Below, one piece after another: positions 12,212 to 24,797 of a stretch of DNA of 64,000 nt. The number at the start of each line of letters is the position of its first letter. Position 1 is the first letter of the stretch. The notes below the pieces were generated by a model. It saw only the letters and a list, made by a program, of their open reading frames with translations, had not been told where the DNA came from and searched no databases. Source of the stretch: Alphaproteobacteria bacterium. Lineage in GTDB: Bacteria; Pseudomonadota; Alphaproteobacteria; UBA828. The stretch is taken from assembly GCA_963422645.2 (NCBI GenBank), contig CAXXVO010000021.1, positions 1 through 64,000 on the forward strand, in the 5' to 3' direction. The position numbers were made by a program, and so were the translations under genes.

Positions 12212-12700
12212 ATGTCCATCGAACAACGCCTTCAGCGCCTGGAAGATATCGAGGCCATCAAGCAACTCATCGCCCGCTACATGACGGCGGCGGATAAGAA
12301 TGGCGATCCGGAGTTGATGGCGCCCTGCTTTACCGAGGACGCGGTCTGGAACTGCGAGGGGATCGGGCGTTGGGAAGGCCGAGACAGTATCGTCCAGGGA
12401 CTGCACGAGACCTCCACCAAGGTGCTTTCGTGGGCGCTGCACTACGCGACCCAGCCGATCATCGAGGTGGCCGACGATGGCCAGACGGCGACCGGCGAAT
12501 ACTACCTGTGGGAGCTCGCCAAGGCGGTGCAGGAGGACGGCAGCCCCGACCAGGACACCTGGGTCGGAGGCTGGTACGAGTCGAAGTTTCGCAAGGAAGG
12601 CGACGACTGGAAGTTCAGCTACATCGAGCTGATCCTCAAGTTGCTGAGCCCCGCCAACGCCTCTTCGTGGGAGACGCCGATCCCGCCCTGGAAGGGATAG
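12212..12700 (+). CDS. SnoaL-like / NTF2-fold protein (LinA/BaiE-like)
   Basis: RLEDIEAIKQLIARY, FTEDAVW, GWY and WKF motifs. Confidence 0.85.
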   Translation: MSIEQRLQRLEDIEAIKQLIARYMTAADKNGDPELMAPCFTEDAVWNCEGIGRWEGRDSIVQGLHETSTKVLSWALHYATQPIIEVADDGQTATGEYYLWELAKAVQEDGSPDQDTWVGGWYESKFRKEGDDWKFSYIELILKLLSPANASSWETPIPPWKG

Positions 12701-12719
12701 CCACGCGGGGGAGGTGCCC

Positions 12720-13397
12720 GTGAATATCGAAGAGCGGCTGGAGCGCCTGGAAGACATCGAGGCGATCAACCAGTTGATCGCGCGCTACGCCCAAGCGGTG
12801 GATCACAACGGCGACCCCGCGCTGGTCGCGCCGCTCTTCACCGAGGATGCGGAGTGGCATTGCGAAGGCATCGGTCATTGGGAGACGCGGGAGGGCATCA
12901 TCCGCGACATACGTCCCAACTGCACCACCTTCATGCCCTGGGCCATCCACTACATGACCCAGCCGAACGTCGAGGTGGGCGCGGGCGGCCTCAGCGCGAC
13001 CAGCAACCACTATCTGTGGGAGCTCGGCAAGGTAACGCCGGAGGCCGGCGGGGCGACCCGGGATACCTGGATCGGCGGCTGGTACGACTCGCAGTTGCGC
13101 AAGGAGGGCGGCGCCTGGAAGTTCGCCCGCATCGACCTCACGCTCAAGCTCTTCAGCCCGGCGGATAGTCCCTCGTGGGAGACCCGGATCGCGCCGTGTG
13201 TAGGGGGACGAAAGTCATTGCGAATCCGGAAGATGCCGGGAAGAAGGCGGAAGATGGCGGACGGTCAAGGGGTTGGCGGCGTTTCCGGGGTCTGGCGGGC
13301 CGGACGAAAGTCTTTGCGAATCCGGCCCGGAAAGGGCCGTGAATTGGCTGGAAGCGGGGATTTTCGGGGCGTTTCAGGGGTGCTGAAAGGCCTGTAA
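12720..13397 (+). CDS. SnoaL-like paralog; native C-terminus displaced by an insertion at 13199
   Basis: Tandem paralog of 12212-12700. Removing the insertion restores ...IAPWSSD* (stop 14107-14109). Codons after 13198 read into the element. Confidence 0.8.
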   Translation: MNIEERLERLEDIEAINQLIARYAQAVDHNGDPALVAPLFTEDAEWHCEGIGHWETREGIIRDIRPNCTTFMPWAIHYMTQPNVEVGAGGLSATSNHYLWELGKVTPEAGGATRDTWIGGWYDSQLRKEGGAWKFARIDLTLKLFSPADSPSWETRIAPCVGGRKSLRIRKMPGRRRKMADGQGVGGVSGVWRAGRKSLRIRPGKGRELAGSGDFRGVSGVLKGL

Positions 13398-14091
13398 ATC
13401 GGCGCGGTTCCGGGGGTGCGGATTCGCCGGCAAATCCCGGTGCGGCGCGGTGCTTCGCCTCGCCCGGTCTACGATGCCGGCGTTGTCCCCGCGCCGGCCT
13501 CCTTCCCTTCGAGATCGGCGCGCCGCGGGTCGCGTGCGATCTCCTCGTCGGAGAAGGGCTTTCGCCCGGGGTTCCCGACCTCCCAGCTTTCCATCCATGG
13601 CAGCGACTGGCATCCGCAGTTGATCGTCTCGGCGGCGGGTCCGGCGGGATCGCGGGGGTACATGAGCGTGGCGCCGCCGACGTCGAAGGGCCTGGCGGCT
13701 TCCCTGGTCTGTCCGTCGACGGCGTCGTTGAGCGCGCGCGACGCCCTCGAGCGACACCGCGGCGCAGGCCGGTGGTACGCCGACGCCGACCCCGGAAGAT
13801 GGACCGGTCACGACGGATACGACGCCGCAGAACGCGCCGTCGAAGACCCCGAATGGTGGAAGGCCGAACTCGAACGCCCGTGCCGCCCCGGCGCCCGCCC
13901 CGGTCCCGACCGCGCCTGAAACCCCCACGCACCGCCCGTGCACGGGCCCTGAACCCCCCGCGCAGCGCTCCTTCATGGCCCATGCACAGGCCGGTTTTTC
14001 CAGCCCGGTTCAGCCCCGAAAACCAGCCGATTTTCCAGGCCATTCGCAAAGACTTCCGGCCGCGATTCGCAAAGACTTCCGGCCGGCTACA
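13199..14091. mobile_element. Non-autonomous mini-element with Mu/Tn7-like ends
   Basis: TGTAG...CTACA termini; 5-bp TSD CCGTG (13194-13198, 14092-14096); repeated ATTCGCAAAGACTT sites at both ends; no transposase. Confidence 0.88.
13469..13728 (-). pseudogene. 3' fragment of phage head morphogenesis protein (MuF/SPP1 gp7 family)
   Basis: DAVDGQTREAARPFDVGGATLMYPRDPAGPAAETINCGC matches the family C-terminal motif. Confidence 0.75.
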
Positions 14092-14152
14092 CCGTGGTCC
14101 AGCGATTAGCTGACGGCTTCAGGGGCCGCCGGGTGTCGGACAGCGGCGCGTG

Positions 14153-23276: not shown

Positions 23277-23463
23277 CAGCACCCCTGAAACGCCCCGAAA
23301 ATCACCGTTTCCAGCCAATTAACGGCCCTTTCCGGGCCGGATTCGCAAAGACTTTCGTCCGGCCCGCCAGACCCCGGAAACGCCGCCAACCCCTTGACCG
23401 TCCGCCCTCTTCCGCCTTCTTCCCGGCATCTTCCGGATTTGCAATGACTTTCGTCCCCCTACA
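23277..23463 (-). mobile_element. Orphan Mu/Tn7-like end, near-identical to 13199-13385
   Basis: Reverse-complement match ending GACTTTCGTCCCCCTACA; cut internally by IS21; abuts a MuF gene. Confidence 0.85.
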
Positions 23464-24363
23464 GTCCAGCTCGGCTCGGTCCGCCGCCTGCGCATAATCT
23501 TCGATACCAACATCCGCATGGCCTACGCCCGCGGCCGATGGGAGCGCATCGAGCGCCTCAGGGAGGCCATGCCCTGGCTCCGCTACGTCGCCGTCCAGGA
23601 CGCCCGCACCAGGCCCGACCACCTCGCATGGCACGGCACCATCCTTCCCGTCGATCACCCCTTCTGGAAGACCCACTACCCGCCCAACGGATGGAAGTGC
23701 CGCTGCATCGTCCAGCAGCTCTCCGAAGACGACCTGGAGCGCTACGGCTATAAAGTGTCGTCAGGCCCGCCGCCGCTCTCCGGGCGCACCCGGCCCTGGA
23801 CCAACCGCCGCACCGGCCGCGTCCACCAGGTCCCCGCCGGCATCGATCCCGGCTTCCAGCACAACGCCGGCCGCGCCCGGCCGGGCCGCGACAGCGCAAA
23901 CCGCCTGATCGAGAAGATCGACGACGCGCCCCCCGACCTCGCACGCGCCGCCATAGGCCAACCCTGGAACGGGGCGCTCTTCCGCCGCCACCTCGAAGGC
24001 CGGTCCGACGCCGACTGGCCCGCGGCCGTGCTCGAAGGCCCGGTCCGCGCCGCCATCGGCGCACGCTCCCGAACCGTCCGCCTCTCCGCAGAAACCGCCG
24101 CAAAGCAGGCCAGGAGACACCCCGATCTCGAACCCGCAGACTACGCCCGCGTCCAGCGCATCCTCGATGAGGGAGAGGTGTTCTCAGCCCCGCGGGGAAG
24201 AGCAATCGGCTTCCTCGAAGAAGAGGGCCGCCTGTGGCGCGCCGTCGTCAAGGCCACCGAAGACGGATCGGAGGCATATCTTGCAAGCCTGCACAAGGCG
24301 CAGCCCCATAACCTCGACGCCGCGCGCCGGCGCCTGAAGCGGGTTGTCGGGGAGGGAGGTTGA
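23464..24363 (+). pseudogene. 5'-truncated Mu gpF (MuF) head morphogenesis protein with C-terminal PBECR-like nuclease/toxin domain
   Basis: RRLRIIFDTN, YVAVQDARTRPDH, HPFW...PPNGWKCRC and GIDPGF motifs; C-terminal VRLS..T..KQ..RHPDL...DY domain (toxin call is inference). Confidence 0.8.
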
Positions 24364-24431: not shown

Positions 24432-24509
24432 CGCCCGACCCTACGCGCCGCCGCGCGCCACCTCAAGCCGATTCAGCGCCCCGGCGCGGGCCGCCGCCAG
24501 CCTCGCGGG

Positions 24510-24797
24510 ACGGGCGCCTCGCACCGCACCTCGCACCGGATTTTCCAGCCGAATCCGATACCCCGAAACCGACCCGATTTGCCGCCGTCGCAAGACCCCT
24601 GAAACGCCCCGAAAATTGCCGTTTCCAGCCAATTCACGGCCTCTGCACGGCCCGATTCGCAAAGACTTCCGTCCGCACGCCAGCCGCCGCACCGCCACCG
24701 TGCCGCCGCGCATCCCCTTGAGATTCCGCCACCTTCCGCCCGATTCCGCCTGATTCCACCCCTTGACCCGATTCACAACGACTTTCGTCCGTCTACA
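24510..24797 (-). mobile_element. Diverged Mu/Tn7-like end of the same family
   Basis: Ends GACTTTCGTCCGTCTACA; internal GATTCGCAAAGACTTCCGTCC; colinear with the reverse complement of 13199-13460. Confidence 0.8.

Follow-up and report, generated by a model that had tools for sequence, protein, structure and literature searches.

The 64,000-nucleotide stretch of DNA analysed here (the window; C22:1-64000 in an assembly of 5.9 Mb and 23 contigs, for which markers put the contamination at 8.5%) carries a short element with the ends of a transposable phage, and the question raised by this locus is whether it is a small element mobilised by a transposase supplied from elsewhere or a prophage that lost its interior in place. 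The element lies at 13199-14091 on the forward strand and is 893 bp long; its tips are TGTAG (13199-13203) and CTACA (14087-14091), and its limits follow from the sequence itself and from matches elsewhere in the genome. Copies of CCGTG flank it on the left (13194-13198) and on the right (14092-14096). At one end, designated the MuF-side or L end after the adjoining gene fragment, an outer repeat (13206-13229, plus strand), which is the presumed first transposase site, and an inner repeat (13302-13325, plus strand) are spaced 96 bp apart and are 96% alike according to the repeat finder. A possible degenerate third copy at this end (approximately 13326-13348) appears solely when this end is aligned with the tandem pair at the opposite end. 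At the tail-side or R end, an inner (14039-14061) and an outer repeat (14062-14084) stand in tandem on the minus strand and are also 96% alike, and a terminal inverted repeat of 29 nt (13198-13226 with 14064-14092, 83% complementary) was returned by the same program. With up to three mismatches, a 17-nt core motif of these repeats has eight matches in the 64-kb window against 0.06 expected, a count reached in none of 100 shuffles; four of the eight lie inside the 893-bp element and four in two further ends, at 23277-23463 and 24481-24797. Multiple end repeats per end, arranged differently at the two ends, are therefore present, and a role in transposase binding is predicted for them from their sequence and arrangement. 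The first-pass annotation, made by a model from the letters of the window, had described an 893-bp element with TGTAG...CTACA termini, a CCGTG duplication, a spaced pair of sites at one end and a tandem pair at the other; the sequence and the repeat finder confirm this description in full.

The interior of the element consists of two outward-pointing 3′ gene stubs, and the remnant encodes nothing. The first stub (13469-13728, minus strand) comprises approximately the last 86 codons of a MuF-type head morphogenesis gene, with its stop codon at 13469-13471. The full gene, annotated in longer copies, encodes 312 aa and matches PHROG 2468 "head morphogenesis" at 6.7e-30, and its score against Pfam Phage_Mu_F (26.6 bits) is under the family cut-off of 29.6; the original reading of this fragment as a MuF stub is thus borne out. 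The second stub (13739-13919, plus strand), which had been left as an unknown gene, comprises approximately 59 codons and the stop of a 298-aa gene, now identified as the final gene ahead of the tail-side phage end. Its full-length protein has no Pfam or NCBIfam match; a weak match to PHROG 1550 "QueC-like" (E 7.3e-5) covers residues 8-69, in the N-terminal PP-loop region, and its language-model neighbours are viral QueC-type clusters (Atlas feature scores 0.97 and 0.95), so that a QueC-like PP-loop function may be taken as a lead only. Copies elsewhere in the genome match element positions 1-530 and 541-893 separately, and the two parts are joined only in the window, which places the junction at 13728/13739 with 10 other bases between the stubs. 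The stubs and their junction are accordingly real, and the earlier position of the joint, "near 13728", was imprecise.

The insertion site could be reconstructed from related genomes. The interrupted host gene (12714-13198, plus strand) is a paralogue of the gene at 12212-12700, and its last codons and stop lie past the insert at 14092-14112. An orthologue is present in 19 of 20 genomes of the same genus, and in all seven congener orthologues inspected the site is uninterrupted: the reading frame runs straight through ...ETRIAPWS.D to the stop, with a single CCCTG or CCTTG where the genome studied here has CCGTG on both sides of the insert. This uninterrupted site in 7/7 orthologues establishes CCGTG as a true target duplication produced by one insertion event. 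In contigs assembled from public runs (Logan), three runs under one organism label, which may include the source of the assembly, bridge both junctions between host and element without differences. No empty-site joint was seen at the locus in the Logan contigs of four runs, and in these four the internal junction of the element is unbridged, the contigs breaking in repeats. In the run that bears a second organism label, ends of the family are present next to other flanks, and the flanks beside the insert are without cover.

The ends of the element recur throughout the genome. The L end has 24 terminal copies, and a variant L end, approximately 73% identical over 300 bp, has about 20 more, giving approximately 44 for both types together. 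The R end has 41 copies, since one of 42 first listed was an offset match within the tandem site, and TG...CA tips of the family occur at 51 places. When each L end was paired with the next facing R end on the same contig, 21 pairs spanning 0.9 to 22.7 kb were obtained; 20 of them have identical 5-bp flanks, every pair lying at a different site with a different 5 bp, and the chance of such identity is 0.0017 per pair. All 20 duplications have G or C at the centre base (genome G+C 0.67, p about 4e-4), 15 of them a pyrimidine at position 2 and 13 a purine at position 4. The target preference of Mu is N-Y-S-R-N, and the base preference of these duplications leans towards it. About 42 insertions of this phage family are estimated for the one genome, the copy in the window being one of them. 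The two left-end and two right-end subtypes also occur in mixed pairs that carry perfect duplications, indicating that the transposase tolerated varied partners. In searches beyond this genome, the end motif was found in none of 60 relatives and in none of the viral contigs searched, and one metagenome contig holds a related end that is cut by the contig edge.

The window contains further members of the family. An L end running from 23463 down to 23277 is cut by an IS21-type element and abuts residues ~104-252 of a variant-type MuF gene (23464-23925), which has its own variant L end at 24797; from this contact, one phage remnant was apparently inserted in the MuF gene of another. Elsewhere, two R ends with unlike flanks form an R-R arrangement (G000:C5:244783-252171), and several L and R ends on different contigs have matching 5-bp flanks (e.g., C13:47701 and C17:4848). 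These two observations fit rearrangements between copies or elements split by the assembly. The same observations lend some credit to an origin of the 893-bp element from two nearby insertions, the ends of which were joined by deletion or recombination and never belonged to one element: many ends lack a partner, or their flanks recur at ends on other contigs, and the R-R arrangement points to common rearrangement between copies. Such an origin is nevertheless highly improbable, because the identical CCGTG on both sides, together with the exact closure of the orthologue over one copy in 7/7 congeners, shows that both ends entered in one event.

The gene content of the longer copies reveals what the two ends once enclosed. 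In the L arm every gene points to the L end, the order from the end inward being MuF, portal, large terminase, Mu gp27 and a small gene, followed further inward by lysis genes with an SLT transglycosylase, a Mor-like HTH protein and GemA. The genes of the R arm point to the R end; starting there with the 298-aa gene, they continue inward with a pair of glycine-rich fibre genes and a gene for a J-like central fibre. In a second type of R arm, the place at the end is taken by genes for a 2OG-Fe(II) oxygenase and a 146-aa protein; its terminus had been considered as a "variant right end" deriving from an IS21-type element of ~2.5 kb, a candidate that was rejected because the end belongs to this second phage arm. 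Mu-type virion and regulatory genes (GemA, gp27, TerL, portal and MuF) are thus present in longer copies that share the ends, and the copy in the window retains the MuF stub only.

The phages closest by TerL (50-59% identity) are Mu-like siphophages of marine Alphaproteobacteria, namely Alteromonadaceae phage B23, Rhodovulum phage vB_RhkS_P1 and the Thiobacimonas and Pelagibaca phages. The genome of vB_RhkS_P1 is annotated with a transposase and a transposition ATPase in the usual collinear arrangement of Mu, which leaves unexplained why MuF adjoins an end in the family described here. A scan by MuF alignment, with one genome per species, yielded 114 relatives, of which 80 were kept; among the first 40 of these 80, which were tabulated, most have the collinear order. 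In the two closest MuF relatives the prophage stops just after MuF. A Thalassobaculaceae MAG has a MuF 72% identical and an L-end-like sequence downstream of it, and in an alphaproteobacterial MAG, designated G068, MuF is 65% identical and host genes start ~0.7 kb after it. In a genome of a neighbouring family of the same order (G040), an L-like end also lies just downstream of MuF. A search of IMG/VR with MuF gave two weak matches only.

The prophage of G068 (G068:C1:546001-603000) is ~41 kb long, apparently intact, with its MuF-side end located, and is organised in two divergent arms. The rightward arm reads GcrA/HTH regulator, MuA, MuB, early genes, GemA, lysis genes, TerS, TerL, portal, MuF and end, and one site related to the end repeats lies after MuF at the expected distance from a TG tip. 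The leftward arm contains the capsid gene (Phage_capsid_4, E 4e-47), tail tube, tape measure, J-like fibre and fibre genes. MuA, identified by rve at 8.7e-10 and Mu-transpos_C at 2.5e-14, and MuB, identified by AAA_22 at 1e-14 with a weak Phage-MuB_C match, are central and adjoin the point of divergence. This layout, shown in a relative, fits all copies in the genome studied here and explains every one of them, in that the outer arms survive and the centre with MuA, MuB, capsid and tape measure is always missing. The parent that the first-pass annotation proposed to look for, a full element with MuA/MuB or TnsB/TnsC genes, is represented by a related ~41-kb prophage with MuA and MuB in another genome; a parent with identical ends was not found among the 60 relatives and the viral and metagenome contigs searched.

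The ends alone allow another assignment. Relatives of Tn7 and Tn5053 would also account for the TG...CA tips, the 5-bp duplication and the several subterminal repeats, and the genome is full of transposons with rve and AAA genes, so that a remnant of a Tn7-like, Tn5053-like or IS21-like transposon might be considered in place of a phage. The resident rve and AAA transposons, however, have unrelated termini, all longer copies carry phage genes without Tn7-type genes, and the related intact element combines MuA and MuB with a full set of virion genes in place of a Tn7-type gene set; a non-phage origin is therefore very hard to credit. Since the longer copies carry Mu-type genes and the intact relative has MuA/MuB, the element is of Mu type and not of Tn7 type. 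The earlier label "Mu/Tn7-type ends" stands in its first half and falls in its second, and the description as an internally deleted transposable prophage is supported by the same phage genes in longer copies and by the MuA and MuB of G068.

Regarding the supply of transposase, profiles for Mu-transpos_C (PF09299) and DDE_2 (PF02914) had no match in the genome, and control genomes were equally silent with these profiles, which gives the two results little weight on their own. A scan with rve gave 114 matches. By open-frame length and score, most of these are the IS21-type transposase (517-aa frames) or that of a resident transposon termed IS-B here (536-aa frames); the inspected matches outside these two groups are IS-type transposases, and the highest-scoring group is taken for IS3/IS481-type from score and length. 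Searches by tblastn with MuA and MuB of vB_RhkS_P1 returned no match in the genome. With the G068 proteins, MuA matched over residues ~150-359 of its 696-residue open frame at three loci, which are cut by insertion sequences, and MuB over residues 242-310 only, at one locus. The absence of any cognate DDE transposase bounded by these ends, which the first-pass annotation had named as an observation that would speak against a mobile element, is what the assembly presents, with fragments of the MuA N-terminal and MuB C-terminal parts only. The family is non-autonomous in this genome, as far as a 23-contig assembly, in which an intact copy could be unassembled, can show. As the remnant has no genes and the assembly no cognate transposase, it is most likely immobile now. 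IS-B was considered as the cognate transposase and rejected, for it has its own unrelated termini and stands alone at many sites; contig C1, considered as a phage contig, was rejected on inspection. Two IS21-type copies at G000:C16:152000-175000 enclose part of the centre of a related prophage; this part lacks MuF and extends from an N-terminal MuA fragment to capsid-side genes, the tail tube and the first ~140 residues of the tape measure, and it is partly duplicated in a 22.7-kb mosaic at C8:85071-107742.

How the interior was lost is indicated by the 10-nt filler at the junction (13729-13738, plus strand), which has the same sequence as the outermost 10 nt of IS-B at its left terminus; counting 2 nt that also belong to the right arm lengthens the match to 12 nt. 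The scar is GC-rich and 10-12 nt long, and the match was noticed after IS-B had already been seen. The 10-mer has 150 occurrences in 11.8 million positions, which corresponds to a chance of ~1e-5 per position for one terminus, to be multiplied by the number of recognisable IS termini. IS-B is a 5.2-kb transposon with TGAGCG... termini and approximately 25 copies that are 99.5-100% alike (e.g., G000:C8:804291-814915). Its five genes encode an HTH protein, an rve transposase of 523 aa, AAA_22, a RepA/DnaB-like AAA_25 protein and a DUF3991+Toprim protein; the primase- and helicase-like genes are an unusual set for a transposon. In 6 of the 21 paired elements, the central junction is occupied exactly by IS-B, whole or in part, and in one of these six a complete copy lies between phage sequences that are not adjacent in the phage. 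Pairwise comparison of the phage arms, 16 of the L and 23 of the R type, gives a median identity of 98.3% (range 94-100%) versus 99.5-100% for IS-B, from which the activity of IS-B is judged to be younger than the phage family. The IS-B scar at the junction points to decay in place.

The comparison of the copies likewise favours loss in place. The 530/541 junction has no second copy in the genome, mutual coverage stays at or below 0.85 for every pair among the 21 elements, and, when mapped onto arm and IS references, none of the 21 has a structure or central junction in common with another. The first-pass annotation had proposed that the element was possibly mobilised in trans like a MITE and that, if no other copy shared its junction, it was a relic of deletion in situ; the count of copies favours the relic, and the MITE-like mobilisation is not supported. 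A break at L position 198, which three elements have in common, was examined as a common junction and rejected as an insertion hot spot of the IS21-type element. Four IS21-type insertions lie at L positions 187-198 (G000:C9:570772, C19:136610, C10:36829 and C22:23463), three of them at 198 and one at 187, and the use of position 198 in both orientations argues for a hot spot and not for common descent. This element (~2.5 kb, IstA 508 aa, IstB 242 aa, ~70 copies) also inserts near the R tip elsewhere, which suggests that it prefers phage subterminal sequence as a target. The IS load of the 5.9-Mb genome is very high, with repeat depths of ~110 for IS66-type, 70 for IS21-type, 48 for IS110-type, 25 for IS-B and 14 for IS4-type elements.

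Taken together, a probable history of the locus can be proposed, in which the 893-bp element is a gutted remnant of a Mu-like prophage that inserted as a full phage and then lost its interior in place in connection with IS-B. A Mu-like transposable siphophage integrated by DDE transposition of the MuA/MuB type into the last codons of the host gene and duplicated CCGTG; this insertion is demonstrated, and the loss of the interior and the order of events are inferred. One arm of this phage would have carried early, lysis and packaging genes out to one end with MuF last, and the other arm, leading to the opposite end, genes for capsid, tail and fibres with the 298-aa gene last, MuA and MuB being central. 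IS-B would later have inserted in MuF at element position 530, and a deletion at a CG microhomology would have removed nearly all of IS-B together with the interior, stopping 353 bp short of the opposite end. Left behind would be the two tips and their repeat arrays, the two outward-pointing stubs and the 10-12-nt scar of IS-B.

The main alternative to this history is a natural mini-Mu, deleted before it arrived and mobilised in trans by, or co-infected with, a MuA/MuB helper that has since been lost, in the manner of a MITE. Both tips and all four end repeats of the 893-bp element are intact, the family was clearly mobile at ~42 sites, the perfect duplications of mixed end subtypes testify to a tolerant transposase, and, within the window, a variant-type element harbours one of this type in its MuF gene. 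The amount of DNA is a further argument against full-length origins, as ~42 insertions of ~40 kb each would amount to about 1.7 Mb inserted and nearly all lost. On the other side, the junction is single in the genome and is marked by the scar of a transposon whose burst postdates the phage family, 0/21 elements have a common structure or central junction, the one recurrent break at 198 is a hot spot used in both orientations, and no intact MuA/MuB was found in the 23-contig assembly. Arrival in an already deleted form is therefore regarded as unlikely. The broader proposal, in which a divergent-arm Mu-type lineage proliferated like an IS to ~42 insertions, its defective genomes being re-mobilised by a lost helper and the 893-bp element being a still-competent mini-Mu, is similarly doubtful.

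On the history of full-length insertion and loss in place, what remains at this locus is a commonplace final stage of prophage decay. The approximately forty target-duplicated remnants, all gutted from the middle and often with a resident transposon at the junction, form a clear natural record of how Mu-type prophages get dismantled, and they also show that phage ends survive as potential substrates for recombination and mobilisation. The divergent-arm layout with a terminal MuF is unusual, and the intact relative in G068 is available for its study. It is this layout and the genome-wide picture that are the parts worth keeping.

In comparison with known systems, the 893-bp element resembles MITEs in being short, in keeping both ends without the transposase and in being flanked by a target duplication. 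MITE families, however, are made up of many copies of one deleted form, whereas the present element is unique and its 21 relatives all differ. The likeness to Mu and Mu-like phages lies in ends that function, or did so once, as a pair of Mu ends does. In addition to TG...CA tips and the 5-bp target duplication, Mu has attL and attR sites with terminal and spaced inner sites at one end and tandem terminal sites at the other, which is the arrangement seen here; the longer copies carry GemA, gp27, TerL, portal and MuF; G068 encodes MuA with Mu-transpos_C and a MuB-type ATPase; and the G/C target centre in 20/20 duplications fits N-Y-S-R-N. The differences are that the window copy has no complete gene, that MuA and MuB are absent between the ends, as they must be in any gutted copy, and that this lineage has two divergent arms with a terminal MuF (G068, G040 and the Thalassobaculaceae MAG), in contrast to the collinear vB_RhkS_P1. 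Mu-like prophages usually number one to a few per genome, in contrast to the ~42 remnants in this host, and full-text word searches brought up no publication that describes natural families of mini-Mu or a genome with Mu-like remnants by the tens. TG-CA ends are given as conserved in Mu and B3-like phages in one report, which also presents mini-Mu elements as engineered tools (PMC8705779). Like engineered mini-Mu and mini-D3112 (PMC8705779), the 893-bp element consists of two phage ends with repeat arrays and without a transposase; unlike engineered mini-Mu, it is natural, carries no cargo and shows no sign of ever having moved in this form, and the genome contains no helper. By analogy with these constructs, it could in principle serve as a substrate for MuA and MuB supplied in trans.
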